From the NCBI GenBank assembly GCA_043808785.1, contig JAZDEL010000006.1:41264-105263 (forward strand): a stretch of 64,000 nucleotides of DNA, read 5' to 3'. Below, in pieces: positions 16,869-62,335 of this stretch. The notes below the pieces were generated by a model. The model was given only the letters and a program-made list of their open reading frames with translations. It was not told where the DNA came from and made no database searches. The position numbers and the translations under genes were made by a program. Positions within the stretch are counted from its first letter, which is position 1, and every line of letters starts with the position of its first letter. The stretch is from Candidatus Iainarchaeum sp. (lineage in GTDB: Archaea > Iainarchaeota > Iainarchaeia > Iainarchaeales > JAZDEL01).

Positions 16869-17004
16869 CGAGCCCGAGGGGATTTGAACCCCCGACACCC
16901 TGGTTGCCCCAGAATGGAAATTAAGAGCCTCACCCACGCACAAGGAAACCGCAAGCGGAAACTTGAAACATGACAGGTGCTCTACCAGACTGAGCTACGG
17001 GCCC
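16869..17004 (-). tRNA. tRNA-Lys(CUU)-like gene, 136 nt, probably with two introns
   Basis: Acceptor, D and T arms are identical to tRNA-Lys(UUU). Removing 45 nt after position 30 and 17 nt after position 38 leaves G+CTCTTAA as the loop between CCTGG/CCAGG stems, giving 74 nt. The anticodon assignment is an inference. Confidence 0.55.
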
Positions 17005-35883: not shown

Positions 35884-36507
35884 ATGATATCTGACGAATA
35901 CATAATGGGCTTTGTCGAGGGCGAGGGCTGCTTCAGCATAACGCTGCAGCGTTACTTTGACCGCAAGCCCAGGGCAACTGGCCGCAGGAACAACCGCAAG
36001 CACAAGGCGTTTCCGATACGGTTGGCTCCAAGCTTCAGGATTACGATAAGGGAGAAAGACAGGCGCGTGCTTGATGAGATTAAGGAAAAGTTCGGTTTTG
36101 GCTCCATTTATTTGCAAAGGAGACAGGGGGAAAATTGCCAGGATACTTGCCAATATGTTGTAGAAACCTTTGGGGATTTGTTTGTTCTGGTGGATTTCTT
36201 CTCAATGCAGACTTTTTACACTCAGAAAGGTGAGGATTTCAGAAAATGGGCCCAGGCTCTCGAGATTTTCAAATCCGGCGGGCATTTAACAAAGGAGGGC
36301 GCGCTGGAGATTTGTAGGCTCAGGGACTGCATGAACCTACGGATGAACAAAGGCAACCGTGTTTCCGAAGAGGTTAAGGCTCTCCTCGAGGAGAAACGCG
36401 AGCACATTCTGGCGCATGCAGACAAAAATCAGAGTAAACTTCTACATAATTGTGATGGGGCACTGCCCAAATCGCCGTTCCCTTTGACGCAGCAACCCAC
36501 ACCCTAA
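35884..36507 (+). CDS. LAGLIDADG-family homing endonuclease, free-standing
   Basis: YIMGFVEGEGCFSI motif (LAGLIDADG_3-like). Locally AT-richer than the surroundings. Confidence 0.65.
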   Translation: MISDEYIMGFVEGEGCFSITLQRYFDRKPRATGRRNNRKHKAFPIRLAPSFRITIREKDRRVLDEIKEKFGFGSIYLQRRQGENCQDTCQYVVETFGDLFVLVDFFSMQTFYTQKGEDFRKWAQALEIFKSGGHLTKEGALEICRLRDCMNLRMNKGNRVSEEVKALLEEKREHILAHADKNQSKLLHNCDGALPKSPFPLTQQPTP

Positions 36508-39575: not shown

Positions 39576-40115
39576 TCACAAATTCTGCCGCATCCAGACG
39601 TGGCTTATAACCTTGCCAAGCGCTTCCCTGAACCAGGGCGCGTATTTATCGGGATTCCTCTTTACGTCCTTCTGCAGTTCCGTTACATCCACAAACTTCC
39701 ATTCCGCGACTTCCCCGGGGTTTGCATCTACCTTCCCGTCGTAAGTGCCCGAGAACACCTGGTCCATCTCGCTCTCGCTGCCCCTATCCCCGTATGCAGC
39801 CCTGTACTGGAACTTGAACAGCGGCCTAAGGCGAGTTGTGAACCCCAATTCATCCTTCAGGCGCTTCTCCGCAGCCTCGGCATAACCCTCCCCTTCTTTA
39901 GGGTGCGAGCAGCACGCGTTCGCCCAGTAGCCGGGCCAGAGCCTCTTGCCCTCCGCCCTCTTTTGAATCAGCATCTCCCCGTTGCCGTTGAATATGAATA
40001 CCGAAAACGCCCTGTGCAGCTTCCCCCTGCCGTCGTGCGCCTTTCCTTTGTCCTCGTACCCTATTATATTGTCGCTTTTATCCACAAGCGTTACCATTTC
40101 CTTCTTCTCAGCCAT
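39576..40115 (-). CDS. idi: isopentenyl-diphosphate delta-isomerase, type 1 (Nudix)
   Basis: HRAFSVFIFNGNGEMLIQKRAEGKRLWPGYWANACCSHP...GE...ELG motifs. 179 aa. Confidence 0.85.
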   Translation of the reverse strand: MAEKKEMVTLVDKSDNIIGYEDKGKAHDGRGKLHRAFSVFIFNGNGEMLIQKRAEGKRLWPGYWANACCSHPKEGEGYAEAAEKRLKDELGFTTRLRPLFKFQYRAAYGDRGSESEMDQVFSGTYDGKVDANPGEVAEWKFVDVTELQKDVKRNPDKYAPWFREALGKVISHVWMRQNL

Positions 40116-40144
40116 TTTCCCAACCCCTTTAAGCCCCCGATTGC

Positions 40145-40996
40145 CTATTCCAGCGCAATCTCAGTTCCTATGCAGTTTTTACCCCCCAACAGGAGATACA
40201 GATTATTAGTGCCATTCAGATTAAAAACCACGGCACTTGTGCCTTTCATGTGCATTTCAAGGTTTTCCAGCTTCCCCCGCATGCCGCTGGTTACATCCGT
40301 TGCCTTTGAACCGCCAACCCCGCGCAAAACCGCGCGGAAATTCGAGTTTGTTATTTTTTTAATTATTTTCGCCCCCCCTGCGGCAATCCTGCCCGCGTTT
40401 TTGTTTTCCCCGCCAAAACCCGCCTTTGGTTCCGCTGCATACACCCCCTCGACATCGGTCCCGAAAAAAACCTTCTTTGCATGCAGTTTTTTCGCGAGGT
40501 AAGCAGCAATCGCGTCCCCGCTGACAACGCTCGCGCCGAGTTTGGAGTCGAGTACCATATCCCCATACATAATTGGCACGACAAACCCGTCCATCTTAAT
40601 CAAACCCCCGACCAAACCCGTATCGAAGCGGGTTATTTTTTTGTTTTTCTGGGTTATGCACGCGCTCGCTTGGGAAGGGAAGGCAAGCAGCCCTTCCTCG
40701 TTGAAAATTTCAACAACCTTCGCGCACAGCCTTTCCATCGAATTGTGCGTTTCCACGAAACCCTTAACCTGCTCCTTAGTGCGCACGCCGTTGTTTATTC
40801 CATATTTTTCAACAGGCACGTGCCCGAAAGGCCCCGCGCCCAAAACAATGATGAGTTTGAATTTTTTCTCAGCGGAGGCGCGCTTAATTTCCTGCGCGAT
40901 GCGCCTCACGGCATCTTCCCTTACCCTTGCTTCCCCCGAAGCCTTGTCCGTGATGACGCTTCCCCCTAATTTGGTTATGTATAAGTTAGCGCTCAT
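40145..40996 (-). CDS. isopentenyl phosphate kinase (amino-acid kinase family)
   Basis: KLGGSVITDK, LGAGPFGH, DVTSGM. Confidence 0.75.
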   Translation of the reverse strand: MSANLYITKLGGSVITDKASGEARVREDAVRRIAQEIKRASAEKKFKLIIVLGAGPFGHVPVEKYGINNGVRTKEQVKGFVETHNSMERLCAKVVEIFNEEGLLAFPSQASACITQKNKKITRFDTGLVGGLIKMDGFVVPIMYGDMVLDSKLGASVVSGDAIAAYLAKKLHAKKVFFGTDVEGVYAAEPKAGFGGENKNAGRIAAGGAKIIKKITNSNFRAVLRGVGGSKATDVTSGMRGKLENLEMHMKGTSAVVFNLNGTNNLYLLLGGKNCIGTEIALE

Positions 40997-41385
40997 TTTA
41001 TTATCACTGTTCCTTTATCCGCATCAACCTCAACCATGCTTCCGCTTTTTATTTTTTCAATTTCAATCTTATCCACGCACGGCACGCCCGAGATTATCGC
41101 CCCCACGGCAACAATTGTTTCGCACTCGGCGTTAACAATCGCGGCGGGCGCCTTGCCGTTCTTCTTCAATCTGTAAAGCGTGTAAGAGCCCACTGTGCTC
41201 CCCTTTCCCTGCGGGAACACAAGAACCTTTCCCGAAACGCTTTTCCCCTCCAAATCGTGCCCCTTTTCAACAACCTTGCCTGTATCAGGGTCCACGCCCC
41301 CGTAAAAGGAAATCCCCATCTTCGAAACAAGCGCCTCGCCCTTTGCTTTTCCAGGGGAGATTTTCCTGCCTTTGAGTTCGGTCAT
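40993..41385 (-). CDS. phosphomevalonate dehydratase small subunit (aconitase X swivel domain, DUF126)
   Basis: 130 aa with a GKAKGEALVS...GDSGSH-like swivel pattern. 4-nt overlap with the large subunit. Confidence 0.7.
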   Translation of the reverse strand: MTELKGRKISPGKAKGEALVSKMGISFYGGVDPDTGKVVEKGHDLEGKSVSGKVLVFPQGKGSTVGSYTLYRLKKNGKAPAAIVNAECETIVAVGAIISGVPCVDKIEIEKIKSGSMVEVDADKGTVIIK

Positions 41386-42587
41386 TCAGTTGCCTCCTTT
41401 ACACAGGCATCCAAATCACGCATTTTAACCTTGAACCCGTGCTTCCCCGAGCAATAATACGCACTCTTCGCTGAATTAGTCGCAATGCATTTGAACCTTC
41501 CCTTTATTGGGGCAACAACCATGCATGTGTCGCACGCGAATTTTGCGCCAGCGCGCTCGATTTTCTCAGTGTAACCCATCGTGTCCGCGATTTTCTTAGT
41601 AGGCCTCGCTGTGCAAACCCAGAACTCCTTCCCCGCCTTTACCTTTTTCCCTTCGAGCAGTTCCGCAAGTTTTGCAATTTCCTTTATGCTCGCGTGCGGG
41701 CAGCCTATGCTTATTATGTCCGCGGCTTCCGAAGGGGAGGCGGTATTCATCTTCGCCTTTGCCTCATCAATATCCTTGCGCGAAACAGCAAAACTCTCGC
41801 CCGGAGTTTTTGTTTTATCAGGGGTTACCCTCTCCATATGGAACATCGCGGTTCCGCCATAAGTGGCAATGCTCGCGCTCAAACTCTTGAGTTCCTCGAT
41901 TGAAGCATTTTTAACCCCGATAATTAGCGGAATTTTGTTTTTTATTTTATTCCCAATCACGTGTCCAAGTGCGCCGAAATCCGTCTCGCCATTAAGTTCA
42001 GTTTCAACAGTTACCTTAACCTGTGCCTGCCTGTTCTCGTCAAGATGCAGGCCGAATTCGGGCGTTCTTCCCGCAATCGCGGCTGCAATCGCGCTTGGGC
42101 CGCCCTCCCTGTTAGTGCGCGCGCCGAGAACCGAGTTAGCAAAGCACACAGCGCTCGACTCGCTCCATGCAATATGCTCCCCGAACCTCGGCAAATTCCC
42201 GATTAGGTAAGGGGTGCAGGTACAAGTAGTTACAATCCCCATCTTCCTGAAAGCGTCAATAACTAATTTTTGCTTTTTCGCAAACTCGGGCGGAATGCCA
42301 AGTGCCTCCCAGTTCTCCAAATCCATCCCCGCAGGGTTAAGCGTTGTCAGCACCCTTACCATGCCATCCTTCGCCATTTCATCAAGGAATTCCAGCCCCG
42401 CATCCCCGAGGTTATCATAAGAAACCCCTGCAACCTGCACGCTTGCAACAGGCACCATCCTCTCCGCGCCGAAAATCTCCCCGAGCGCAACGAGAATTTC
42501 CATGCTCTTCTTTGCCGCGTTCCCGTGCTTTCCAGCGAGCATTTCCTGCTCTTCTTTTGTAAGTTGCATGCTTTTTCCCTTCTGCAC
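41382..42587 (-). CDS. phosphomevalonate dehydratase large subunit (aconitase X catalytic domain, DUF521)
   Basis: 401 aa with conserved Cys cluster region TTCTCTPY. Confidence 0.7.
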   Translation of the reverse strand: MQKGKSMQLTKEEQEMLAGKHGNAAKKSMEILVALGEIFGAERMVPVASVQVAGVSYDNLGDAGLEFLDEMAKDGMVRVLTTLNPAGMDLENWEALGIPPEFAKKQKLVIDAFRKMGIVTTCTCTPYLIGNLPRFGEHIAWSESSAVCFANSVLGARTNREGGPSAIAAAIAGRTPEFGLHLDENRQAQVKVTVETELNGETDFGALGHVIGNKIKNKIPLIIGVKNASIEELKSLSASIATYGGTAMFHMERVTPDKTKTPGESFAVSRKDIDEAKAKMNTASPSEAADIISIGCPHASIKEIAKLAELLEGKKVKAGKEFWVCTARPTKKIADTMGYTEKIERAGAKFACDTCMVVAPIKGRFKCIATNSAKSAYYCSGKHGFKVKMRDLDACVKEATE

Positions 42588-42604
42588 AAAAACAATGTTG
42601 AACC

Positions 42605-43342
42605 TTATATTAATGGTTTCTTCATCTTAAGGAACCCTGTTGGGCGCCTTTTCACCCTTAAGTCCCTTTGCGGGAAATGTTCGTAAATCGGCGTGTTGTT
42701 CCGTCTCGTTTCCAGCGCAAGCCTAGCCTTTTGATAGTTGTCAATCAGTGCATTTAGTTCCTTTTTCGGCACATTTCCTGCGGCGTGCGCTTGCTGGATT
42801 TTTTTGTGCAGGCTGAGTAATTCCCATTCAAGCCTGCCGACTTTTTGAGAGGGCGGGATTATGTGTTCAGCGGCATGGCTCTCAATAGCCGATTTGAGCC
42901 CGACAGGCATTTCCGTGGACGGTTTGCCAATTTTTTTCTTCCGCTGCCCGAGTTTCCTTGCAACTTTGTTTATTTCATTTAACGAATGTACTAGCAGGTC
43001 GTTTAACGAAACGAAGTGCACTCCGCTGCCCTTGAGGGCCGCCTTCGCTATATTTTTGTAGTCCGCGGGCGCAGCGGTATATGCAATAACCGTGCTTTTT
43101 TTGGCGGCAGACCTCAGAAAAGGTTCAAGGAAAACAATGTGTGGCCACTTGTCATGGAATAAATCTGACATAACAACATCAAAGGTTTTACTTTGTATCA
43201 GCCCATTTGCCTTCGTAAAGTCGTCACACACGGTTATTTCGCAATTAGCCCACTTCTTCATATAAGAAACGAGCGACTCCGACAACTTCGGGCTGTCTTC
43301 CACAAGCAGGACTTTTGGCACCCCCGTCTTTTGCTTTGCCAC
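42605..43342 (-). CDS. response regulator (CheY-like receiver + C-terminal helical domain)
   Basis: KVLLVEDSP...DVVMSDL receiver motifs. Embedded in the mevalonate gene string. Confidence 0.65.
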   Translation of the reverse strand: MAKQKTGVPKVLLVEDSPKLSESLVSYMKKWANCEITVCDDFTKANGLIQSKTFDVVMSDLFHDKWPHIVFLEPFLRSAAKKSTVIAYTAAPADYKNIAKAALKGSGVHFVSLNDLLVHSLNEINKVARKLGQRKKKIGKPSTEMPVGLKSAIESHAAEHIIPPSQKVGRLEWELLSLHKKIQQAHAAGNVPKKELNALIDNYQKARLALETRRNNTPIYEHFPQRDLRVKRRPTGFLKMKKPLI

Positions 43343-43344
43343 AG

Positions 43345-44652
43345 TTAGTTCCCCTTCAAAAATTTGCCAATGTCAACCTTCGGCACAGGCACCTTTGAAA
43401 AATCCTTCCCGTGCGCAACTATGGGCTTCGTCATGTCGAACCCCGCCTTGCACGTCGCCCTCGTGTTCGGGTCCGCGCTCGGGTCTATGCTCGACCCTTT
43501 TTCATTCGGCTTCATAACGAAATCCTTGTCCGCCTGGAAGCGCGTTGACATCGCCCACTCGACATCCTGCGGATTGTAGATGTTTATGTCGTCATCAACA
43601 ACAAAAACATGCTTGCACGACCTGTGCCCGCGCATTGCGGCTTCAATAGCCCTCTTCCCGTCCTCTTCCGCGCGCTTCTGTATCTGCACAATCACGTGCA
43701 GCCACGAGCACCCGCCCGTGCTTACAAAAACATCCCTGCATTTCACGCCCGCCTTCTCCACTTCCTTGAATACCGTGGGCTCCTTAGGCATCCCCATCAG
43801 CAGCCTGTGCTCGTAATATGAGGAAAGAAGCGCGTGGTAAATAGGGTTCTTCCTGTGCGTGATTTTCTTCACCTCAAAAACAGGCTGCTCCCTCTGCACG
43901 TCCATGGTTCCCGTCAAATCAACAAACGGCCCCTCCTTCGCGGTTTCCTTTGTGAAGCGCCCTTCAAGGACGAACTCGGCGTCGGCGGGAACCATGACGT
44001 CCGTGCTTTTTGCTTTTGTTATTTTCAATGGTTCAAGCGTGTTTGCAATCGTGAACTCGTCGATGCCGAGGTCCACGGATGTCGCCCCCGCAAGCAGCAC
44101 ATTCGGGCTCATGCCTATGCAGAACGCGGCATCAAGTTCTCCGTCATTGCGCTTTATGAACTCGTTCAGGTGCCTCTCAAGTATGCGCATCGTGAACTTA
44201 TTTTTCCCAATCTGCAGCGCCCTGTGGAAAGAAAGGTTCATTCCCGCCTCGCGGTCGCGTGCAAAGACAATGCCGGCCGTAACATAGTTGCCTGCTTCCC
44301 CCCCGAAGTGGTGCAGCAGCGGCAGCTTGTCAAGGTCAACAGGCATCTCCATTTCCTTGCATGGCGCGTCCTTCACAACCGCAGGCTCCGTCCTTGCATC
44401 CAGCGCCCTAATCATGCGCGGAATTAATTCCCGTGTTTTTATCCCGAAATACTCCGCAATCAAATCCTTCGTGCTGAAAAAATTCGCGGCAGTCCGTATT
44501 CCCGTTCCCCCGATATCCTCGAAAACCATCGGCTGTTCCGGCATTGCAGCCATTATCCCCGCAGCCTCGAACTTCTTCGAAACCTTGCCTGAAATTTTCC
44601 TGACCCTGCCCTGCTTCTCCAATTTTGCAACGAACTCCCTGAAACCCATCAT
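43345..44652 (-). CDS. UbiD-family decarboxylase, probable trans-anhydromevalonate-5-phosphate decarboxylase
   Basis: UbiD-like sequence, 435 aa, next to ubiX and the mevalonate genes. Confidence 0.75.
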   Translation of the reverse strand: MMGFREFVAKLEKQGRVRKISGKVSKKFEAAGIMAAMPEQPMVFEDIGGTGIRTAANFFSTKDLIAEYFGIKTRELIPRMIRALDARTEPAVVKDAPCKEMEMPVDLDKLPLLHHFGGEAGNYVTAGIVFARDREAGMNLSFHRALQIGKNKFTMRILERHLNEFIKRNDGELDAAFCIGMSPNVLLAGATSVDLGIDEFTIANTLEPLKITKAKSTDVMVPADAEFVLEGRFTKETAKEGPFVDLTGTMDVQREQPVFEVKKITHRKNPIYHALLSSYYEHRLLMGMPKEPTVFKEVEKAGVKCRDVFVSTGGCSWLHVIVQIQKRAEEDGKRAIEAAMRGHRSCKHVFVVDDDINIYNPQDVEWAMSTRFQADKDFVMKPNEKGSSIDPSADPNTRATCKAGFDMTKPIVAHGKDFSKVPVPKVDIGKFLKGN

Positions 44653-44700
44653 GAACCCTCCAAACCATTGCCGCGTTTTTTGTTTTGTTATTTTGTTTTT

Positions 44701-45303
44701 TTATTTCCGATTCCCCGCAATTGCTTGCTTTCCTTCCCAGCGCCTGTAAAGGTTGTTCTCCAACCCAATTAAATCCATAACCTTCCCCGCAACAAAGTTC
44801 TCCAAATCGCCTATGGTTTTGGGTTTGTGGTAAAACCCGGGGCTGAGCGGAAAGACAATCCCTCCGGCAACCGCAATCTTGTGCAGGTTCTCGAGTGCGG
44901 GTGCGCTCAGCGGAGTCTCCCTCACGCACACGACCAGCGGCTTCCTTGTGCGCAGCATGTTGTCGGCACAGCGCGTTATAAGCGTGTTTGTGTACGCATT
45001 AGCAATCCCCGAGCACGTCTTCACGCTCGTGGGAACAACAACCATTGCATCCACTTTAAACGAGGTGCTTGAAACCTTTGCCCCCATCTCCTTTTCCGAG
45101 TAGTGGAAGTGCGCCAGTTCTTTTATTTGCTTTGCCCCAATGTTCGCTTCGGCCTTAACCAGTTCCTCCGCCCACTCGCTCATTATCAGGTGCATCTCAA
45201 CGCCCCTTTCCTTCCCCAGCGCCTTAAGCAGTGCAACCGCGTAATTCACTCCAGATGCGCCGCTCATTGCAATAATTATCCTGCGCTTAGCCATGTCACA
45301 CAC
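44701..45303 (-). CDS. ubiX: flavin prenyltransferase UbiX
   Basis: IIIAMSGASGVNYAVALLKAL, 200 aa. Confidence 0.85.
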   Translation of the reverse strand: MCDMAKRRIIIAMSGASGVNYAVALLKALGKERGVEMHLIMSEWAEELVKAEANIGAKQIKELAHFHYSEKEMGAKVSSTSFKVDAMVVVPTSVKTCSGIANAYTNTLITRCADNMLRTRKPLVVCVRETPLSAPALENLHKIAVAGGIVFPLSPGFYHKPKTIGDLENFVAGKVMDLIGLENNLYRRWEGKQAIAGNRK

Positions 45304-46234
45304 CGATTCTTGTTTTCACACTCGAATATCCGAGTTTTTCAATCGCTTCCGCAACCTTCCCCTGCAGGTCCTTCCCTGGCGTGAGCGCAACCATAAGCCC
45401 GCCCCTTCCTGTGCCTGTCAATTTTGCCCCCAGTGCCCCCGCACCGCGCGCGGCACCAACCATCTCATCCAACTCATCACAACTAACCGTAATTTTTTGC
45501 AGGAGTCCGTGGTTTTTGTTCATCAGACCGCCAACCTTTTTGAAGTCGGAAGCAAGCAGGGCTTTTTTCGCCTCCTCCGCAATTTTTTCATACTCATCAA
45601 AAACCTTCGCGGTTTCGTTTGGTTTTTCATCCTTAAGCCTGCGCACGTCAGCAATCACTTCCTTAGTGCTGCTTGTCCTCCCGCTGTTGCCTAGCACAAT
45701 CTCCACAGGCTTCTCCATTTTCAGTTTCTCCATTTCGTTCTTCCCCCCATCAGCGCCCTTCCTGAAAACAATCATCCCGCCGTAAACCGCCGCGGTATTG
45801 TCAATCCCGCTCGGCGTGCCGTGCGGCCCCTTCTCGCCCTCATATGCGGCCTCGTTTATTTTCTCATTATTCCGGCCCATTTTGAACTCGTCATCAATCG
45901 CCCGTGCAAGCGCGGTAGCGCACGCCGCGCTCGCCCCCACGCCCGAAGCCGCAACCAATGTTCCGCCAAGCGTGATGCGCACCTGCTCCTTCACGCCCAT
46001 GAACGCAAGCACATTCTCAATCAGCGCCTCGTATTCCCCGCGCTTCTGAACCTTATACCCCGGTGTTTCGGGCCTGTTGTCAACAAGTTCGTATTTTTTC
46101 CCGTTTGCCAATTTCACGCGCCCGACCTTGGCAGTTGTCGCATCCCCGAGCGCGCACGCAATCGCGGACATTCCATAAACAACGAAATGTTCGCCGAAAA
46201 GGATTGTTTTCCCGAAGCCCGAACCAGTGCCCAT
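45296..46234 (-). CDS. mvk: mevalonate kinase (GHMP kinase)
   Basis: GKTILFGEHFVVYG N-terminus and GHMP motif. Start set to the internal ATG at 46234. Confidence 0.8.
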   Translation of the reverse strand: MGTGSGFGKTILFGEHFVVYGMSAIACALGDATTAKVGRVKLANGKKYELVDNRPETPGYKVQKRGEYEALIENVLAFMGVKEQVRITLGGTLVAASGVGASAACATALARAIDDEFKMGRNNEKINEAAYEGEKGPHGTPSGIDNTAAVYGGMIVFRKGADGGKNEMEKLKMEKPVEIVLGNSGRTSSTKEVIADVRRLKDEKPNETAKVFDEYEKIAEEAKKALLASDFKKVGGLMNKNHGLLQKITVSCDELDEMVGAARGAGALGAKLTGTGRGGLMVALTPGKDLQGKVAEAIEKLGYSSVKTRIGV

Positions 46235-46355
46235 TGCAACCAACCGCGCCCAAAAAACCAAACCGCCATCCAAAAAACAGAAAACGGTTTTTTGTTTTTC
46301 GTTTCCGCCAACCAAGAAACCAAATGCGTTTTTGTTTTTTTATTTCCGCTTCCCC

Positions 46356-46778
46356 TTACTTCACGACCCTGAACTTGTAGCCGTAGGCAATCGCCCCTTC
46401 TTTCCTCTGCTCGGAAATCTTCCTGAAAACCTTCTCCACATGTGCGCCTATCCTTACCTTTTCATTTTCGCTGTCCACGACCTGGCTTAACAGCCTCGCG
46501 CCGTTCTCAAGTTCTATTATCGCAAGGAAATAAGGCGTTTCGTGGTCGAACCCCGTGGGTCCTGTCATTACCTCCGTGTATGAAATAACCTTCCCCTTCC
46601 TCGGCATCTGCTTTGCTGAAAGCTTCCCGCGCCTCCTGCAGTTCGGGCAAACTCCCCTTGCCGGGAAGAAATCCTCGCCGCATGTGCTGCACGAATTGCC
46701 GGCAAGCGTGTAGCGCTCGGGGAACTTCCTCCAGATTAACGGCAGTGCTTCGCTCATTTCATGCACCCCCCGCAACAC
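46356..46778 (-). CDS. DUF35 OB-fold/zinc-ribbon protein (scaffold of the archaeal thiolase-HMGCS complex)
   Basis: CSTCG...CPNC zinc ribbon plus OB fold. Confidence 0.75.
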   Translation of the reverse strand: MLRGVHEMSEALPLIWRKFPERYTLAGNSCSTCGEDFFPARGVCPNCRRRGKLSAKQMPRKGKVISYTEVMTGPTGFDHETPYFLAIIELENGARLLSQVVDSENEKVRIGAHVEKVFRKISEQRKEGAIAYGYKFRVVK

Positions 46779-48045
46779 AATATGCGAATTTATTTCCCGT
46801 TAATTTCCTCTCGACAAGCCCCTCTTCAGACATCCGCAATAGAACATCGCGCACATGCCTTCCCGACCTTTTGCACGCCTTTGAAATGCCCGAAGCGGTT
46901 GCGAGAACGCCCTGCGCATTAAGATTTGTGATTGCTTTAATATAGTTCTCCGAAGCCTCGTGGCGCGGGAAAGACTCGAGCCCGTCAACATACCTGCCAA
47001 GAACATGCACGAGTTTGTTTTCCTTCCGTTCCAGGCCGAAACCGACCTTCTCGAGATATTTCCGCAGGTTCTCCCTACCGCTTATTATAAGTGTCCAATT
47101 GAGCGTAACTTCCCCGCTGCTTTTGAAATTGCGCCCCCTGACGACTATTTTTGATTTAATGCCCATGACTTCCAATGACTGCTGAACATCCGACAGCAAC
47201 TGCGGCTTTTTTGCGGCAGTTTCTTCCGCAGCGGTTGTGGGGCATATCAGAGTAATCACCCTGCAGTGATAATTATCCACAACACAGCCGTCATCGTCAA
47301 ACAGCCGTCTCAGGAGGGCTATAAGCGGCTTTCTATCGCCCGCCGCAATGAACTGCCTGGGAATTCCTAATTCGTAATTATAATTTTTGTTGCCGTCAGG
47401 AATCCCGATAGTGCCGAGGATTACGCCGATTATTTTGGGGAAAATTACGCAGGGCACGCCGCTTGTCGACCTGTGGCGTGCAAACCTGACATCGCCAAAT
47501 GTGGAAACAACCGCACCCACAAAACTATCGACCTGCTGGCGCTCGTTGTTGAAGTACCAGACGCGCATCTTGCTTTTTTCTATCCCGCCGTCGCCCAAAA
47601 CTCCGCCAACAACAAGCCCGAATTCCTCGGTCAAAATTTCGAAAGGCAGCTTCGGGTTTTTTATTTTCTCTTTTGATTTCAGGGTTTTCAATTCAATTAC
47701 TTTCTTTTCTATCTTCCGCCCGTTAATGCCAAGTTCATCCGCAGCCCTGGCCAAAAACGAAAGCGGCATGCCGCTCCTTCCGACGGAATACCGCCTTGCG
47801 GATTCGCCCCTGCCGAGCCCGAAAGCCCTTGCGATTGCGGAAAACGAGCCGTGTTTCTTCAAGAGCGCCCCGAATAGTTCCTTCCTGAACTCGGCATCCA
47901 GCGTAACGCGAATTTTGCCCGCAGGCAAATCAAAAAGGGAAATGCTCGCCATTTCATCTTCACCAGCAATAAATATGTTTTTTATCCCCTTAAATAGTTT
48001 CGGGAGAGTGCATTTCCGGTGCGAAACAGAAATTTCCGTATTCAT
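46759..48045 (-). CDS. LAGLIDADG-family protein (double-motif) with N-terminal HTH-like and C-terminal winged-helix-like extensions
   Basis: LVVGGVLGDGGI and LIALLRRLFDDDGCV motifs. Its ATG overlaps the thiolase TGA (ATGA at 48045-48042), and its stop overlaps the DUF35 start by 20 nt. Confidence 0.7.
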   Translation of the reverse strand: MNTEISVSHRKCTLPKLFKGIKNIFIAGEDEMASISLFDLPAGKIRVTLDAEFRKELFGALLKKHGSFSAIARAFGLGRGESARRYSVGRSGMPLSFLARAADELGINGRKIEKKVIELKTLKSKEKIKNPKLPFEILTEEFGLVVGGVLGDGGIEKSKMRVWYFNNERQQVDSFVGAVVSTFGDVRFARHRSTSGVPCVIFPKIIGVILGTIGIPDGNKNYNYELGIPRQFIAAGDRKPLIALLRRLFDDDGCVVDNYHCRVITLICPTTAAEETAAKKPQLLSDVQQSLEVMGIKSKIVVRGRNFKSSGEVTLNWTLIISGRENLRKYLEKVGFGLERKENKLVHVLGRYVDGLESFPRHEASENYIKAITNLNAQGVLATASGISKACKRSGRHVRDVLLRMSEEGLVERKLTGNKFAYCVAGGA

Positions 48046-49220
48046 CTTTTCCCCTCCAGTGCCTGCAAAATGTGAATCACGCATGTTGCCCCACTCCCCC
48101 CGATATTGTGCGTCAGCCCTATGTGCGCATTCTTAACCTGCCTCTTCCCCGTAACCCCCCTTACTTGCTCGCAAATCTCGATAGCCTGCTTAACGCCTGT
48201 TGCGCCGACAGGGTGCCCGCATTTAAGCCCGCCCGAGGTGTTAATCGGGATTTCACCTTTTAGTGCGGTTTTTCCGTCCTCGCTTGCTTTTCCCCCTTTG
48301 CCCTTTTTGAAGAACCCCAAATCCTCTATTGCAAGTATTTCCGCGATTGTAAAGCAGTCATGCACTTCCGCCAAATCAATATCCGAAATCTTAAGTCCCG
48401 ACTGCCTGAGCGCCTCCTGCACCGCAACCTTCGTCGCCCACAGTTCGGTAAGGCTCTTCCTGCTAGCAACGGCAAGAGTATCCGAAGCCTGCGCGCTCGC
48501 AATAATCTCGACAGGTTCCTCACACAGTTTTCTTGCCTTATCCGTCGCACACAGGATTGCCGCTGCTGCACCGTCGCTGATGGGCGAGCAATCCAGCAGT
48601 TTCAGGGGAGTTGCAACATACCCTGAATTCATCACATCCTCAATTGTAATTTCATTGTGGAATTGTGAGTGGGGGCTGTGCATGCCGTTCGCATGGTTCT
48701 TCACTGCAACAGCGGCCATCTGTTCCTCCGTTGTTTTGAACTCGTGCATATGCCTCCTTGCAAGCAGCGCATAGAGTGCGGGGAAAGTTGCGCCCTGGAA
48801 AAGCTCGGTTTCCTGGTCCCCCGCGCCCCCCAAAGCAAAGCCCGCTTCCTCGGTGCTTACCTCAGTCATCTTCTCCGCCCCGCCGACAGCAACAACATCA
48901 TACATTCCGGAAGCGATCGCGTGGTAAGCCGCCCTAAGGGCAACCCCGCCAGAAGCGCATGCAGCCTCAACACGCGTGCTCGGCGCGGGATTCAGCCCTA
49001 ACTGATCCGCAATAAGCGCCCCAATATGCTCCTGCCCTATGAACCTTCCAGAAGCCATGCATCCGCCGTAAACCGCCTCTATATCCGCCCCGCTTATGCA
49101 CGCGTCGCTTATCGCCATTATTCCCGCCTCGGCAATAAGCTCGCGGAACGACTTGCCCCAGTGCTCCCCGAATTTCGTTATGCCCGCGCCGATAACCGAA
49201 ACGCTCCTCATGCCGCGCAC
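48042..49220 (-). CDS. acetyl-CoA C-acetyltransferase (archaeal acetoacetyl-CoA thiolase)
   Basis: Thiolase Cys region CASGG, C-terminal NIGGSGATCV. Confidence 0.9.
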   Translation of the reverse strand: MRGMRSVSVIGAGITKFGEHWGKSFRELIAEAGIMAISDACISGADIEAVYGGCMASGRFIGQEHIGALIADQLGLNPAPSTRVEAACASGGVALRAAYHAIASGMYDVVAVGGAEKMTEVSTEEAGFALGGAGDQETELFQGATFPALYALLARRHMHEFKTTEEQMAAVAVKNHANGMHSPHSQFHNEITIEDVMNSGYVATPLKLLDCSPISDGAAAAILCATDKARKLCEEPVEIIASAQASDTLAVASRKSLTELWATKVAVQEALRQSGLKISDIDLAEVHDCFTIAEILAIEDLGFFKKGKGGKASEDGKTALKGEIPINTSGGLKCGHPVGATGVKQAIEICEQVRGVTGKRQVKNAHIGLTHNIGGSGATCVIHILQALEGKR

Positions 49221-49337
49221 CCCGTGCCAATGCCGATTGCGGAAACGCCTCTCATAGCATCAACCCTTTCGACAAATTTTCCCGCAAAACCCCGCCCGTG
49301 AACCCGCGCGCGGTTTTTTGTTTTTTTGCCGCCCCCG

Positions 49338-50384
49338 TCAGAGCGACTTCAGCTTCCTCCTGTGTTTCGTGTAAAGCGCGTAATCGATGTACTTTTTCTC
49401 CTTTACCATTTCAAGCACAGGCACCTTCGCCCTTCTCCCCGGGATGTTCCTTGTGGCAGTAAATGAGAACGCATCGCTTCCCGCCCCCGAACCGTAACTT
49501 ACCGCAAGAATTTTCTGCTTCGGCTTTGCAACATCAAGAATGCTCGCCAGGCCCAGCATTGTTGAGCCCGAGTATGTGTTGCCTATTATGGGCGTTACCA
49601 GGCCCTGCTCCAGCCTCCCCCTTTCCACGCCCAGAATTTTCCCCGCGCGCAAAGGAAACTTCCCGTTGGGCTGGTGGAAAACCACGTAATCGAAATCCGA
49701 AACCTTCTCCCCCGTCCTGTTCAGCAGCCCCTTTGCGGCGCCAACCACATGCCTGAAATATGCCGGCTCTCCTGTGAAACGCCCCCCGTGCTCGGGGAAC
49801 TCCGCGTGCTGCCTCCTCCAGAAATCGGGCGTGTCAGTTGTGAATGAAAATGTGTCATTAACCCGCGCAATAATTTCCTTCGGCTTCCTGCCGATTATTA
49901 TCGCCGCCCCGCCGCTCCCCGCGGTGTATTCAAGCGCATCACCGGGCTTCCCCTGTGCAGTGTCCGCGCCTATAGCCATCCCGTACTCTATCATTTTGCT
50001 CTCGCAAAACCCTATGCACATCTGCACCCCCGCAGTGCCGGCCTTGCACGCAAACTCCAAATCCGCAGCCATGTACTCGGGCGCTGCGCCTATCGCGTCC
50101 CCGACAATTGTTGATGTGGGCTTCACAGCATAAGGGTGGCTCTCGCTCCCCACGTAAAGCGCCCCTATTTTGATTGCATCAATCTTCGCGGTTTCCACAG
50201 CGCGCCTTGCCGCTTCCACAGAAATGGTTGCGCAGTCCTCGTCATAGGCGGCAACAGCCTTCTCCCTCACCCCCAGGCCCGCGCTTATGCGCTTTCCGTC
50301 CTTTTCCCAGACGCGCGCTATATCCTCGACCGCAATCCTGAACTTCGGCACATATGCGCCGTAACCCACAATTCCGCAATCCAT
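49338..50384 (-). CDS. hydroxymethylglutaryl-CoA synthase
   Basis: Archaeal HMGCS-like sequence, 348 aa, with the catalytic Cys region. Confidence 0.9.
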   Translation of the reverse strand: MDCGIVGYGAYVPKFRIAVEDIARVWEKDGKRISAGLGVREKAVAAYDEDCATISVEAARRAVETAKIDAIKIGALYVGSESHPYAVKPTSTIVGDAIGAAPEYMAADLEFACKAGTAGVQMCIGFCESKMIEYGMAIGADTAQGKPGDALEYTAGSGGAAIIIGRKPKEIIARVNDTFSFTTDTPDFWRRQHAEFPEHGGRFTGEPAYFRHVVGAAKGLLNRTGEKVSDFDYVVFHQPNGKFPLRAGKILGVERGRLEQGLVTPIIGNTYSGSTMLGLASILDVAKPKQKILAVSYGSGAGSDAFSFTATRNIPGRRAKVPVLEMVKEKKYIDYALYTKHRRKLKSL

Positions 50385-50409
50385 ATGCCCACCGGTTATT
50401 AATGTTCAA

Positions 50410-51711
50410 TTAACCTCTCTTTTTATTCTCTTTCCTTTCCCCCGCGGGTTTTGCCGCCTTCTTTCGCAGATTGACGAGAATTTCCGCTGCGTTATCCGCG
50501 GATATCCTGCCGCATTTTGCCATTTCCCCCGCAACCTTCTCAATTTCCCCGCCTTTTGCCCCCGCTGCAACCGCAACATTCTTCGCATGCAGCCCCATGT
50601 GCCCTTTCTGTATCCCCTCCTTCACAATCGCGCGGTTTGCGGCAAATGTCTGCGCAAGCCCGACAGCGCAGCACACCTCCGCAAGCTCCTTCGCGCTTTT
50701 AATTCCCATAATTTTCAATGCAATTTTTGCAAGAGGGTGAGTTTTTGTCGCCCCCCCGACAATTCCCAAAGCGAGCGGCATTTCCATTTCCCCCGCCAAA
50801 TCCCCCGATTTGGTTATGTAGAAGTTCTGCAGTGCCCTGTATGTTCCGTCCCTCGCGGCATAGGCATGCGCCCCGGCCTCCGCAGCGCGCCAGTCATTGC
50901 CCGCAGCAATCAGCACGGCATCGATGCCGTTCATAATCCCCTTGTTGTTCGTGCACGCCCTGAAAACATCCGCCTGCGCAAGCGCGCTTGCATCCGCGAT
51001 TGCCTCAACCAATTCGCCCCCCAATTCCTCCTTTTTCCACACCGCGCACGCCTTTACGGTGCGGTGTATCGCATAATTGCTTATTATTTTAAGGCGCGCC
51101 CTGCCGCCTGCCAACCTCTCCAATTCGGGCGCAATCCTCTCGCACATGCTGTTCACGGCATTCGCGCCCATCGCATCGCCGCAGTTCACGAGGATGTGCA
51201 TAACCAGCATCTTCCCGCGCTGCGTTTCCACTTCGCGCAGCTGAATTTCCTTTGCGCCTCCCCCGAATTTCAGGAGGACAGGGTCGCAGGAATTTGCTGT
51301 TTTGAGCAGTGAGGCGGAATTTGCCGTTATCTCGCGCTCCGCCTTCCCGAAATCCTTAACCCCCACCAGCTGCACCTGCCCTATCATAATCGGTTCGCTC
51401 GCCTCCGCCTTGAACCCCCCCAAAGCGCGCGCCAATTTTGCCGCGTTGGAGGCGGCGGCAATAATGCTCGGCTCCTCGGTAACCATGGGCACAAGATAAT
51501 CCTTCCCGTTCACGCGGAAGTTCGTCGCAACCCCCATAGGCATTCCGTAAACGCTCACCGCGTTCTCCACCATCCTGTCCGCGGTCTCGAACTCCAGCCC
51601 GCCCTTCCCGAGCGCCGCAACCTCATCAGCGCCGAGCGCGGACTCGCGCTTGAGCACATCAAGCCTCTCCCCGCGCTTCAATTTGTAAAACCCGCTTATG
51701 TCAGATTTCAT
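50410..51711 (-). CDS. HMG-CoA reductase, class II (bacterial/mvaA type)
   Basis: VPMVTEEPSIIAAASNAAKLARALGGF and DAMGAN motifs. 433 aa, with no membrane domain. Confidence 0.85.
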   Translation of the reverse strand: MKSDISGFYKLKRGERLDVLKRESALGADEVAALGKGGLEFETADRMVENAVSVYGMPMGVATNFRVNGKDYLVPMVTEEPSIIAAASNAAKLARALGGFKAEASEPIMIGQVQLVGVKDFGKAEREITANSASLLKTANSCDPVLLKFGGGAKEIQLREVETQRGKMLVMHILVNCGDAMGANAVNSMCERIAPELERLAGGRARLKIISNYAIHRTVKACAVWKKEELGGELVEAIADASALAQADVFRACTNNKGIMNGIDAVLIAAGNDWRAAEAGAHAYAARDGTYRALQNFYITKSGDLAGEMEMPLALGIVGGATKTHPLAKIALKIMGIKSAKELAEVCCAVGLAQTFAANRAIVKEGIQKGHMGLHAKNVAVAAGAKGGEIEKVAGEMAKCGRISADNAAEILVNLRKKAAKPAGERKENKKRG

Positions 51712-51737: not shown

Positions 51738-52460
51738 TCACGCACCATCAGTAAGCACCTTCAGCCCCGCATTTTCCAGCAGTTCCTTTGCAGCACACAT
51801 CTCACTATTTGTAGGGGCTCGAACTCCTTTTAAGGGGAATTTCAGCCCTATCTCCGTCCATTTCCTTTCGCCGAGCGCACTGTAAGGCAGCAGTTCAACG
51901 CACTCCAGCATTTCAAGGGTTTTCGCAAACTCCGCGAGCGCGGCAATATCCGCTTCGGCATCCGTGAAGCCCGGAACAACCACATAGCGCAGCCTTACGG
52001 GCCTGCGCGCCGCGGCAAAGCGTATGTTCGCGAGCGCCTCCCCGTTGCTCCTGCCCGTTATTTCGCGGTGCCTTTTATCGTCCATATGCTTCACGCTGCA
52101 CATGAACAGGCTTGTGTAAGGCAGCACGGTTTCGACCGCGGACCTGTCCGCGTACATGCACGAATCCAGCGCGGTGTGTATTCCGCGTTCGTTGCAGCGC
52201 CTCATCACTTCGGCAACGAACCCGGCCTGCATAAGCGGCTCGCCCCCGGAGAAGGTAACGCCGTTTATGTACCGCACGCTGCGCTCTATGCCGAGGAACA
52301 GTTCCGTTGCAGACATCTTCTTCCCGCCCTTCCCCGCCGCAACATCTATGTTCTGGCAGAACTTGCACCTGAGGGGGCAGCCCTGCATGAAAATAACATA
52401 GCGCCTTCCCGGGCCGTCAAGGGTGCCGAAACTTTCGACAGAGTGGACCAAACCCTGCAT
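51738..52460 (-). CDS. pflA: pyruvate formate-lyase (glycyl-radical enzyme) activating enzyme, radical SAM
   Basis: CPLRCKFCQN cluster motif. Confidence 0.85.
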   Translation of the reverse strand: MQGLVHSVESFGTLDGPGRRYVIFMQGCPLRCKFCQNIDVAAGKGGKKMSATELFLGIERSVRYINGVTFSGGEPLMQAGFVAEVMRRCNERGIHTALDSCMYADRSAVETVLPYTSLFMCSVKHMDDKRHREITGRSNGEALANIRFAAARRPVRLRYVVVPGFTDAEADIAALAEFAKTLEMLECVELLPYSALGERKWTEIGLKFPLKGVRAPTNSEMCAAKELLENAGLKVLTDGA

Positions 52461-52488
52461 GCGAAACCACGCCGCGGTTTTTTTATTT

Positions 52489-61283: not shown

Positions 61284-61344
61284 AATTGCAAACGTTTTTA
61301 TATTTGCGGTGCGTTATCTTGTTCAGCGGCTTTAAGGTGCCCCC

Positions 61345-62298: not shown

Positions 62299-62335
62299 AA
62301 AGAAAATCGAACCTTTGGCGCAATCACGTGCCCCT

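Follow-up and report, generated by a model that had tools for sequence, protein, structure and literature searches.

The 12-kb gene string at positions 39576–51711 of the window (the whole 64-kb stretch of DNA analysed) is very probably a chromosomal mevalonate operon of the Iainarchaeota, the former 'Diapherotrites' of the DPANN archaea, with a complete trans-anhydromevalonate-phosphate route, a gene order inherited within the phylum and three changes particular to a sub-lineage. As read from its sequence, the string carries a predicted gene for every step of the known archaeal pathway that leads from acetyl-CoA to the isoprenoid precursors. Enzyme identities were assigned from profile scores, from residues of the active sites and from the conserved surroundings of the genes; catalysis and co-transcription are inferred. 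The proposal of an earlier note that a complete Aeropyrum-type (archaeal) mevalonate pathway is encoded here holds as a functional reading.

Gene content and predicted pathway

ORFs in the string were assigned with Pfam and NCBIfam profiles (Table 1). All 13 minus-strand ORFs listed by the earlier note were present where it had placed them and in the order that it gave. None was disrupted, and profile matches of the pathway genes were essentially full length. Ten of the 11 enzyme genes scored above a curated cut-off (family or gathering), and their profile matches were near full length; HMGCS passed through its NCBIfam model, its Pfam matches being marginal, and the AcnX large subunit was matched by its Pfam family alone, there being no specific equivalog model. 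The thiolase also matched NF053570 with 541 bits, under the cut-off of 600, and MVK scored 39 bits against the archaeal PMK model (cut-off 500). Within the window each pathway gene occurred only once, and neither a further GHMP kinase nor an IDI2 was found.

Table 1. ORFs of the mevalonate string and of its two upstream neighbours (positions in the window)
Feature	Positions	Strand	Profile match (score vs cut-off)
IDI type 1 (Nudix)	39576–40115	minus	NF002995 168 vs 127; TIGR02150 144 vs 106
IPK	40145–40996	minus	NF040647 IPPK_Arch 199 bits vs 120
AcnX small (swivel) subunit	40993–41385	minus	PF01989 121.5 bits; NF003046 187.5 vs 163
AcnX large subunit (putative phosphomevalonate dehydratase, type II)	41382–42587	minus	PF04412 530 bits
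Receiver-like orphan ORF, 245 aa	42605–43342	minus	PF00072 24.4 bits vs gathering score 30.2
UbiD-family decarboxylase	43345–44652	minus	TIGR00148 353 bits vs 245
UbiX flavin prenyltransferase	44701–45303	minus	NF004685 215 bits vs 188
MVK	45296–46315	minus	TIGR00549 230 bits vs 163
DUF35	46356–46778 as called; 46356–46757 start-corrected	minus	Pfam zf-ChsH2 + OB_ChsH2_C
LAGLIDADG_3 ORF	46759–48084 as called; 46759–48045 start-corrected	minus	Pfam LAGLIDADG_3
Archaeal acetoacetyl-CoA thiolase	48042–49220	minus	NF004720 538 bits vs 420
Archaeal-type HMGCS	49338–50384	minus	TIGR00748 545 bits vs 353
Class II HMGR	50410–51711	minus	TIGR00532 399 bits vs 260
PflA activase	51738–52460	minus	TIGR02493 242 bits vs 232
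PflB pyruvate formate-lyase	52489–54744	minus	TIGR01255 1054 bits vs 994

In the predicted pathway, thiolase and HMGCS would convert acetyl-CoA to HMG-CoA on a DUF35 scaffold, class II HMGR would reduce HMG-CoA to mevalonate in an NAD(P)H-dependent reaction, and MVK would phosphorylate mevalonate to mevalonate-5-phosphate. The AcnX heterodimer would then dehydrate mevalonate-5-phosphate to trans-anhydromevalonate-5-phosphate, which the UbiD-type decarboxylase (AMPD), with prFMN presumably made by the co-encoded UbiX, would convert to isopentenyl phosphate; IPK would yield IPP and IDI would isomerize IPP to DMAPP. The best structural match of the DUF35 protein was the chain named 'Pfam DUF35' in 6esq/6et9 (1.5e-35, compared with just 1e-13 for PhlB), so that it is closest to the subunit of the thiolase/HMGCS complex of M. 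thermolithotrophicus and is, by sequence, the predicted scaffold protein of such a complex.

The trio of UbiX, UbiD and AcnX could in principle serve aromatic-acid decarboxylation or hydroxyproline metabolism, with the pathway completed by enzymes encoded elsewhere. The nearest solved structure to the UbiD homologue is indeed HmfF, a furandicarboxylate decarboxylase (8e-71), some orthologues carry the JGI annotation '2,5-furandicarboxylate decarboxylase 1', and AMPD has no curated model against which it could be scored. We nevertheless regard a role of the trio outside the mevalonate pathway as very improbable. With TkAcnX as its nearest match (3.7e-110) and with split subunits, the AcnX large subunit is clearly of type II; its C124, C296 and C355 align with the Fe–S ligands C110, C283 and C342 of TkAcnX, and valine stands where type I has a third cysteine. 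The UbiD homologue scored far below the cut-offs of the UbiD, menaquinone, VdcC and phenylphosphate carboxylase equivalogs, and in 73 of the 75 genome loci with room for the comparison its orthologue lay directly upstream of the genes for both AcnX subunits. Moreover, UbiX, UbiD and AcnX are embedded between MVK and IPK, PMK, DMD and PMD were not found in the window, and the archaeal mevalonate pathway has been reported as dominant in DPANN (PMC11052028).

The AcnX large subunit thus has the type II form (mevalonate-5-phosphate dehydratase) and not the proline-dehydratase form. Loci with UbiD followed by both AcnX subunits span Asgard archaea, Bathyarchaeia, Aenigmatarchaeota, Iainarchaeota and Chloroflexi; genes for MVK, IPK and IDI often accompany them. 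Named sequences among the best 120 matches listed for the UbiD homologue were all archaeal (54–94 % identity), and some Chloroflexi orthologues occurred among the genome loci.

Conservation and origin of the operon

The order HMGR–HMGCS–thiolase–DUF35–MVK–UbiX–UbiD–AcnX large–AcnX small–IPK–IDI2, followed by a convergent DTD2 gene, was found in four loci (L005, L040, L041 and L049), and two more (L085 and L086) had the same 11-gene order up to the contig end. At least six other Iainarchaeota-type loci thus share the order with decarboxylases that are 52–56 % identical, and Asgard archaea carry nine-gene versions of the string. The earlier description of the cluster as unusually compact is not borne out by these loci: a layout common to the phylum is ordinary for the lineage. 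Since order and the flanking DTD2 gene are kept in loci whose decarboxylase is so diverged, the operon is old in the phylum; its 11-gene order was inherited there rather than assembled in the genome of the window, and it was not demonstrably transferred as a unit.

Assignment of the HMGR to class II, as first proposed, was confirmed, with 399 bits for the class II model compared with 42 bits for the class I model TIGR00533; the best PDB match was 1qax, the class II HMGR of P. mevalonii (1.5e-116). The further suggestion that this 'bacterial type' points to lateral replacement is not supported by other loci. In every Iainarchaeota and Asgard locus examined, this slot was filled by class II HMGR (50–59 and 49–52 % identity, respectively), which adjoins the AMPD gene in the Asgard loci. 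HMGR-II is also reported to be frequent among DPANN, Asgard and TACK archaea, and DPANN HMGR clusters with the HMGR of other archaea (Hoshino & Gaucher 2018, PMC6107057). Conservation of the slot in relatives, together with this reported frequency in archaea, argues against a recent bacterial replacement.

These data also bear on a broader alternative, in which bacteria were the source of the class II HMGR and of IDI1, and the string is a laterally acquired isoprenoid cassette, recently imported or put together in this genome. Horizontal transfer is reported to have supplied Iainarchaeota with many pathways (PMC12892359), the type 1 isomerase is a real replacement with relatives in other DPANN archaea (50–55 % identity) and in bacteria (about 50 %), and the adjoining PflB and PflA genes are true PFL genes of bacterial type. 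Such an origin is nonetheless quite improbable in view of the conserved order including DTD2, the constant position of class II HMGR and its placement with other archaeal sequences, and the base composition of the eleven enzyme genes, whose GC content (0.50–0.57) fits the mean for the window (0.53). Lower values were confined to the two insertions, the LAGLIDADG and receiver-like ORFs. Misassignment of the contig during MAG binning could have occurred, but is disfavoured by the gene order shared with other Iainarchaeota contigs.

Changes confined to the sub-lineage

Against this inherited background there are three recent changes: the isomerase was exchanged, and two genes were added, one for a mobile endonuclease and one a regulator-like orphan. 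The isomerase of the window is of type 1, as the earlier note had recognized, with both models above cut-off (Table 1). IDI2 holds the same slot in L005, L040, L041 and L049 and adjoins IPK in those Asgard and Aenigmatarchaeota loci that include the region; apart from the window, IDI1 was found only in L001, L002 and L006, a clade with a decarboxylase at 83 % identity, its named relatives outside this clade being the DPANN and bacterial sequences mentioned above. Synteny with the IDI2-bearing loci upholds the proposed substitution and supports a replacement in situ of an ancestral IDI2 by IDI1, in this sub-clade only. IDI1 keeps the catalytic and metal-binding residues in an alignment to the bacterial IDI structure 3hyq. 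In E. coli numbering, we take the kept residues to be H25, H32, C67, H69, E114, E116 and W161.

The LAGLIDADG ORF, which the earlier note had left in brackets, is the most unusual element of the string. It encodes a free-standing, double-motif protein of 428 aa within an insert of 1283 nt (46758–48040) that has exact boundaries and separates the stop codon of thiolase from the start codon of DUF35. In L004, whose thiolase is 97 % identical, a 3-nt spacer stands in its place. Homologues occur beside thiolase/DUF35 genes in four other lineages, three of which have them at this very junction, with P0242 (51 % identity), P0243 (49 %) and P0244 (45 %) lying between thiolase and DUF35 in L086, L087/L088 and L089, respectively, and a 42 % homologue directly upstream of DUF35 in L091; five occupied alleles and at least seven empty ones were counted. 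The AlphaFold model (pLDDT 89.6) matched archaeal intein HEN domains, I-Tsp061I and I-DmoI, and the protein has conserved aspartates in its motifs (D152 and D250/D251). Recurrence of homologues at the same junction in other lineages points to a site-specific homing endonuclease, present here as a lineage-specific insertion.

The ORF between AMPD and AcnX had been called a CheY-like response regulator embedded in the operon, a description that is too strong. Its match to PF00072 is below threshold and covers only profile positions 1–79 of 111. An N-terminal (βα)5 domain is followed by a helical C-terminus, the AlphaFold model is of low confidence, the conserved lysine after β5 is absent when read directly from the sequence, and no database match was obtained except its own entry. 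It is missing from L001, L003, L005 and L086, where UbiD runs straight into AcnX. Only the closest relative, L004, whose decarboxylase is 94 % identical, has a diverged receiver-like N-terminus in the same place (about 47 % identity over 30 aa). The ORF, with the lowest GC content in the string (0.47), is a weak, fast-evolving orphan and a lineage-specific insertion, not a component of the operon.

Both extra ORFs might instead be functional, the receiver-like protein as a phospho-regulated controller of mevalonate flux and the LAGLIDADG protein as a WhiA-like DNA-binding regulator of the operon. Both reading frames are undisrupted, run in the direction of the operon and are coupled, tightly or translationally, to the adjoining genes; the receiver-like ORF keeps the acidic pair E15–D16 and a candidate phospho-acceptor, D60, and a HATPase_c protein is encoded at 15952–16794. 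The LAGLIDADG protein has additional N- and C-terminal helix-turn-helix-like domains, with WhiA among its fold matches (2.6e-6). Regulatory roles for the pair are still unlikely, as both ORFs are missing in most relatives with an otherwise identical operon and have the lowest GC content in the string, and as the receiver-like orphan is poorly conserved even in L004 and lacks the lysine. The LAGLIDADG family, for its part, keeps its catalytic aspartates, which WhiA-type regulators, to our knowledge, typically lack, and a pattern of occupied and empty alleles at a single precise position is what homing typically produces. Insertion thus remains the preferred reading for both ORFs.

Gene starts, spacing and neighbouring genes

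The start of the LAGLIDADG ORF is most likely the ATG at 48045, overlapping the thiolase stop codon (ATGA), and that of DUF35 the ATG at 46757, and the LAGLIDADG ORF is coupled translationally to the genes on either side. For MVK a start near 46237 is most likely, because the MVK proteins of relatives are 310–312 aa long. The AcnX small subunit gene overlaps both adjoining genes by 4 nt. Gaps of 117–118 nt with oligo-T runs lie 3′ of HMGCS and of DUF35 and could mark borders between transcription units.

Directly upstream of HMGR, PflA and PflB continue the co-directional string with gaps of just 26–28 nt, and some 25 nt upstream of PflB there is a TATA-like TTTAAAA; the two genes are possibly co-transcribed with the mevalonate genes. 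They are outside the conserved operon, as other genes stand upstream of HMGR in L005 and L086. Elsewhere in the window, two tRNA genes are, at 136 and 142 nt, long enough to contain introns, which supports an archaeal origin, and a polyprenyl synthetase encoded at 7755–8816 could consume the products of the pathway.

Gene content and pathway-defining enzymes

Thirteen closely packed ORFs were identified on the minus strand by ORF calling and by Pfam and NCBIfam profile searches, in the order set out in the earlier note (table). Profile matches were essentially full length throughout, so the string contains no pseudogene. Neither PMK nor DMD nor PMD was present in the string, and a scan of the 64-kb window showed that each pathway gene is single-copy there, with neither a further GHMP kinase nor a type 2 isomerase (IDI2). 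The top PDB matches of the HMG-CoA reductase (HMGR) were bacterial class II enzymes (~1e-116). In the type 1 isomerase (IDI1), aligned to 3hyq, the motifs KAH, LHRAFS, NACCSHP, ESEMDQVF and APWF lay at positions mapped to catalytic and metal-ligand residues, which we take to be H25, H32, H69, E114, E116, C67 and W161 in E. coli numbering. A match at 1.5e-35 linked the DUF35 protein to the scaffold subunit in the thiolase/HMG-CoA synthase (HMGCS)/DUF35 channelling complex of M. thermolithotrophicus (6esq/6et9), and in the window thiolase and HMGCS are neighbouring genes; the difference from that system is that a putative endonuclease gene of 1.28 kb splits the thiolase–DUF35 junction.

Features of the mevalonate gene string and of other genes in the window (profile scores in bits, with the model cut-off where available)
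Feature	Coordinates	Strand	Details
Mevalonate string	39576–51711	−	13 ORFs
HMG-CoA reductase, class II		−	TIGR00532 399 (cut-off 260); class I model TIGR00533 42
HMG-CoA synthase, archaeal		−	TIGR00748 545 (353)
Thiolase, archaeal		−	NF004720 538 (420)
LAGLIDADG_3 protein		−	428 aa; PF14528 match; most likely start ATG 48045, overlapping thiolase stop (ATGA)
Insertion carrying the LAGLIDADG gene	46758–48040		1283 nt
DUF35		−	zf-ChsH2 + OB_ChsH2_C; most likely start ATG 46757
Mevalonate kinase (MVK)		−	TIGR00549 230 (163); most likely start near 46237
UbiX flavin prenyltransferase		−	NF004685 215 (188); directly upstream of decarboxylase
UbiD-family decarboxylase		−	TIGR00148 353 (245)
Weak receiver-domain protein		−	Response_reg 24.4
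AcnX large subunit (AcnXL)		−	PF04412 530
AcnX small subunit (AcnXS)		−	NF003046 187.5 (163)
Isopentenyl phosphate kinase (IPK)		−	NF040647 199 (120)
Type 1 IPP isomerase (IDI1)		−	NF002995 168 (127)
PflB and PflA	51738–54744	−	PflB: TIGR01255 1054 (994); gaps 26–28 nt
Polyprenyl synthetase	7755–8816	−	PF00348 220
LAGLIDADG_3 ORF	14223–14858	−	211 aa, free-standing
LAGLIDADG_1 ORF	35884–36507	+	207 aa, free-standing
tRNA gene	14043–14184	−	142 nt (Rfam)
tRNA gene	16869–17004	−	136 nt (Rfam)
Long RelA/SpoT homologue	416–2566	+	716 aa; HD_4, RelA_SpoT, TGS, ACT domains
Class I lysyl-tRNA synthetase	11083–13479	−	798 aa; N-terminal extension of ~268 aa without Pfam match
Tyrosine integrase	24007–25083	−	
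Four KaiC/RecA-like ATPase genes	59656–63466	both	two with DUF7504

The large subunit of AcnX (phosphomevalonate dehydratase) matched the T. kodakarensis type II enzyme (7cnr) at 3.7e-110. In this alignment C124, C296 and C355 occupied the positions of the TkAcnX Fe-S ligands C110, C283 and C342, and V357 stood at the position of the third cysteine of type I enzymes (AtAcnX C510); ligand identities and AcnX structures are described in PMC8184944. The large and small subunits were encoded by two adjacent ORFs, i.e. a type II architecture. The cysteines, V357 and the split subunits all assign AcnX to type II and not to a non-mevalonate form, a possibility that had been raised for AcnX and the UbiD homologue alike.

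The UbiD homologue fell well under every non-mevalonate equivalog cut-off (137 against 788 bits for ubiquinone UbiD, 143 against 496 for menaquinone and 202 against 650 for VdcC). Among its 120 nearest listed homologues all named ones were archaeal (54–94 % identity), from Iainarchaeota, Micrarchaeota, Bathyarchaeota, Asgard groups and Aenigmarchaeota. The most telling evidence for a mevalonate version of this enzyme was gene context. An alignment of decarboxylase homologues was used to retrieve 80 species-representative genome loci, Chloroflexi orthologues among them, and AcnXL and AcnXS lay immediately downstream of the decarboxylase on the same strand in 73 of the 75 loci with enough downstream sequence, even in Chloroflexi. 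Given this context and the missed cut-offs, the UbiD homologue is probably not a non-mevalonate paralogue. The nearest solved structure was that of the furandicarboxylate decarboxylase HmfF. The window enzyme is probably orthologous to the characterized anhydromevalonate-phosphate decarboxylase (A. pernix APE_2078 and the M. mazei enzyme). The adjacency of UbiD and AcnX offers a practical marker for the mevalonate decarboxylase among UbiD paralogues, a distinction that curated models so far do not make. With the profiles, the AcnX type and the gene context combined, the earlier reading of a complete archaeal (Aeropyrum-type) mevalonate pathway was correct at the sequence level.

The Chloroflexi orthologues of the decarboxylase (49–52 % identity) came from Anaerolineae and Chloroflexia MAGs (L045, L047, L053, L058, L062, L064–L067, L069–L071, L075, L080 and L083; L numbers denote loci from other genomes or MAGs, and their percentage identities usually refer to the decarboxylase). 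Most were followed by AcnXL and AcnXS, which suggests that the archaeal dehydratase and decarboxylase steps may also run in these Chloroflexi. L034, a locus labelled Nanopelagicaceae, had a complete cluster of the Asgard type, perhaps through mis-binning of its contig.

Conservation of the operon and origin of HMGR and IDI

In L005, a Diapherotrites MAG (56 % identity), the order was HMGR–HMGCS–thiolase–DUF35–MVK–UbiX–UbiD–AcnXL–AcnXS–IPK–IDI, with the convergent gene DTD2 next after IDI, as in the window. The order from HMGR to IPK was identical in L005, L040, L041, L049, L085 and L086, and the same order was seen piecewise on the short contigs of L001–L004 (83–94 % identity). This recurrence across Iainarchaeota loci indicates that the string is an inherited, phylum-level operon. 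All 11 functions were present in three of the 80 genome loci and 10 in one, up to the contig end; nine were found in 15 loci, all Asgard (HMGCS-like, HMGR-II, UbiD, AcnXL, AcnXS, MVK, IPK, IDI2 and UbiX). The string had been called unusually compact, which is true relative to textbook archaea but not within its own lineage, where the six loci carry the same string. Mevalonate pathway genes in Diapherotrites are already on record, and archaeal mevalonate pathway genes are commonly clustered (PMC6107057; PMC11052028, which also surveys the archaeal pathway). No paper describing the complete 11-gene arrangement was found in the literature searched, and a search on the gene context of phosphomevalonate dehydratase returned unrelated synteny papers only.

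Besides gene order, these Iainarchaeota operons share with the window the downstream convergent DTD2 and a class II HMGR. They differ in possessing an IDI of type 2, in lacking the receiver-like ORF, in carrying the LAGLIDADG gene only in L086, and in having other genes, without PflBA, upstream of HMGR (as in L005 and L086). The Asgard clusters (Promethearchaeota, Hodarchaeota and Thorarchaeota; e.g. L008, L013 and L015) have in common with the window a core of class II HMGR, UbiD, AcnXL and AcnXS, with MVK, IPK, IDI2 and UbiX nearby, so that about 10 kb contains nine of the 11 functions. In these clusters, however, MVK follows AcnX, UbiX runs in the opposite direction, there is no thiolase or DUF35, and the HMGCS-like gene is only 27–31 % identical to that of the window. 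The Aeropyrum-type pathway, reportedly described by Hayakawa et al. in 2018, has the same set of MVK, heterodimeric type II AcnX, UbiD-type enzyme with UbiX, IPK, thiolase, HMGCS and DUF35, whereas the window has eleven genes in one co-directional string, a DPANN host, a class II HMGR, two unrelated inserted ORFs and, in its sub-clade, an IDI of type 1.

Two features of L005 stood apart. A 432-aa methyltransferase-like gene (L005 8056–9354, minus strand) lay between MVK and UbiX on the opposite strand, and MVK was only 28 % identical to that of the window, so that exchange within the phylum may have affected MVK as well.

The profile scores confirmed the assignment of HMGR to class II, but the suggestion of a bacterial replacement, judged from synteny and from Hoshino & Gaucher (PMC6107057), was not upheld. 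Every Iainarchaeota locus had a class II HMGR in the corresponding slot (50–59 % identity, 88 % in L004), and in Asgard loci a class II HMGR (49–52 % identity) adjoined the decarboxylase. HMGR-II is reported to be numerous in archaea of the DPANN, Asgard and TACK groups, with the DPANN HMGR grouping with those of other archaea (PMC6107057).

The outcome was different for the isomerase, for which both the type 1 assignment and the proposed replacement were borne out. The slot between IPK and DTD2 held an FMN-dependent IDI2 in L005, L040, L041 and L049, and IDI2 also adjoined IPK in Asgard and Aenigmatarchaeota loci; a Nudix IDI1 was present in this slot only in the window and in the 83 %-identity clade (L001, L002 and L006). 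The replacement of IDI2 by IDI1 is therefore real and local, and the locus represents a clean in-situ case of non-homologous isofunctional enzyme replacement. Outside this clade, named IDI1 relatives were found in DPANN (Aenigmatarchaeota, Nanoarchaeota and Woesearchaeota; 50–55 % identity) and in bacteria (about 50 %), and as these are about equally distant no donor is singled out.

Two ORFs inserted in the operon

The receiver-like and LAGLIDADG ORFs are both insertions, and had the lowest G+C contents in the string (0.470 and 0.495, compared with 0.50–0.575 for the enzyme genes). The LAGLIDADG gene, which the earlier note had placed in brackets, is the most novel feature of the locus. Its insertion was exact: L004, with a thiolase 97 % identical to that of the window, has a 3-nt spacer instead, and its empty thiolase/DUF35 junction contains GGGGAAAAGGTGAAAACATGGGCGAAACACTGCC. 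Seven alleles were empty (L003, L004, L005, L041, L049, L078 and L085), with thiolase and DUF35 −4 to +7 nt apart; occupied alleles were found in the window, L086, L087/L088, L089 and L091.

When 1.84 billion representative proteins were searched in full with HMMER, the LAGLIDADG ORF proved to belong to a family of stand-alone proteins, about 400 aa long and comprising 519 clusters at E ≤ 1e-3. Its three nearest relatives (51, 49 and 45 % identity) were all located between thiolase and DUF35 of other mevalonate operons (L086, L087/L088 and L089) and a fourth (42 %) immediately upstream of DUF35 in L091, whilst members with 31 % identity or less were located elsewhere. A metagenome scan with single-sequence peptides yielded nothing and a second scan, with an alignment, two loci only. 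No match was obtained in a PDB sequence search with the protein. An AlphaFold model built with a 30-sequence alignment (pLDDT 89.6) matched in its core, by Foldseek, the HEN domain of the TliVMA intein (1.7e-9), I-Tsp061I, I-DmoI and WhiA, and the motif aspartates D152 and D250/D251 were kept in the family (30 members).

The core fold is thus like that of I-DmoI, I-Tsp061I and the archaeal VMA intein HEN domains (Foldseek 1.7e-9 to 5e-5), with two motifs bearing aspartates. The window gene differs from these endonucleases in being free-standing, neither intron- nor intein-borne, and in its seat between two genes of a biosynthetic operon on the chromosome; its product has additional winged-helix domains, N-terminal (about 130 aa) and C-terminal. 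An intein of the thiolase was considered and rejected, as the thiolase is complete (profile positions 1–382 of 385) with its own stop, and the ORF is intergenic without a Hint-domain signal. The presence of WhiA among the fold matches would be in keeping with a domesticated WhiA-like regulator, but this is a minority alternative for a gene so precisely and site-specifically placed, so patchy in its distribution and with an intact LAGLIDADG active site. By the sequence and the model, these same properties are best explained by a free-standing homing endonuclease gene targeted to the operon junction.

The chances seem evenly balanced that the junction-dwelling members represent a lineage of free-standing genes that would home specifically into the thiolase/DUF35 junction and benefit from being translationally coupled to two essential genes. 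If so, this would be a chromosomal, operon-embedded homing system in archaea, without intron or intein, for which the intronless homing of the phage T4 seg and mob genes is the analogue. No description of such a junction-homing endonuclease system was found in the searchable literature.

The window contains two further free-standing LAGLIDADG ORFs, and the genome seems rich in such genes. The LAGLIDADG_3 ORF adjoins the 142-nt tRNA gene, and the LAGLIDADG_1 ORF resembles a LAGLIDADG_1 gene located beyond DTD2 in L001.

The second inserted ORF had been described as a CheY-like response regulator within the operon. Its match to Response_reg was below the gathering score (30.2) and was confined to profile positions 1–79 of 111. 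E15-D16, D60 and T89 were present, but as read from the sequence there was no Lys after β-5 (FVSLND), and no output domain was recognised. In a word-indexed search of 5.8 billion proteins the only hit was the query, and the window contained no paralogue. The single-sequence AlphaFold model, of low confidence (pLDDT 52.7), showed a (βα)5 arrangement, which would suit a receiver domain, followed by a helical hairpin. The ORF was absent from L001, L003, L005 and L086, where the decarboxylase directly abuts AcnX, and in L004 (94 % identity) the N-terminus encoded at the corresponding position was receiver-like (VLVVEDD...) and only about 47 % identical over 30 residues. The ORF is regarded as a fast-evolving orphan and not as an established pathway regulator.

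Differing ORFs were inserted at the UbiD–AcnXL junction in the unrelated lineages of L020, L049, L066, L070, L072 and L078, with products that, by eye from the sequences, were ATPase/HTH-like, HAD-like, HD-domain, endonuclease/exonuclease/phosphatase-like and HNH-like. The decarboxylase–AcnX junction therefore seems to be a recurrent, tolerated insertion point.

Proposed pathway, transcription and neighbouring genes

The enzyme identities established here at the sequence level would support the following route, with catalysis, cofactor supply and transcription as we infer them. Acetyl-CoA, some of it perhaps from the neighbouring pyruvate formate-lyase (a speculative step), would be converted to HMG-CoA by a thiolase/HMGCS/DUF35 complex and then to mevalonate by the class II HMGR. 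After phosphorylation by MVK, the phosphorylated mevalonate would be dehydrated by the Fe-S AcnX heterodimer, and the product decarboxylated by the prFMN-dependent UbiD-type enzyme, with cofactor from the UbiX encoded alongside. IPK would convert isopentenyl phosphate to IPP, and IDI1 would convert IPP to DMAPP. Both products could be consumed by a polyprenyl synthetase whose gene lies about 31 kb away from the operon. To our knowledge most DPANN archaea cannot make their own lipid precursors; a complete, intact one-operon route to IPP and DMAPP, together with a polyprenyl synthetase gene farther along the contig, strengthens the case that Iainarchaeota can do so. The archaeal mevalonate pathway is ATP-saving, and an 11-gene natural cassette of roughly 10 kb that includes UbiX for prFMN would be a convenient engineering template.

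Spacing within the string consisted of overlaps and gaps of 2–48 nt, which suggest that most genes are co-transcribed, and of two gaps of 117–118 nt, which may be breaks between transcription units; one of these, between DUF35 and MVK, contained clear oligo-T runs. A scan for sigma-70 promoters and intrinsic terminators was set aside as not applicable to an archaeon.

HMGR is immediately preceded, in the same orientation, by genes encoding a true bacterial-type pyruvate formate-lyase (PflB) and its activase PflA. A TATA-like TTTAAAA was located about 25 nt before PflB. Pyruvate formate-lyase is uncommon in archaea; judging by their position, PflB and PflA may be co-transcribed with HMGR, linking pyruvate via acetyl-CoA to isoprenoids.

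Candidatus Iainarchaeota is placed by NCBI taxonomy within the kingdom Nanobdellati (DPANN). The two long tRNA genes, long enough for introns and presumably containing ones of about 65–70 nt, fit an archaeal host, as does the archaeal DTD2. ARAGORN found only one of the three tRNAs detected with Rfam and missed both long ones, presumably because of the introns. We know of few long RSH enzymes in archaea, and since they appear to be rare there the RelA/SpoT homologue is probably a bacterial acquisition. Other genes in the window encode a class I lysyl-tRNA synthetase, a tyrosine integrase and the KaiC/RecA-like ATPases, which are clustered on both strands.
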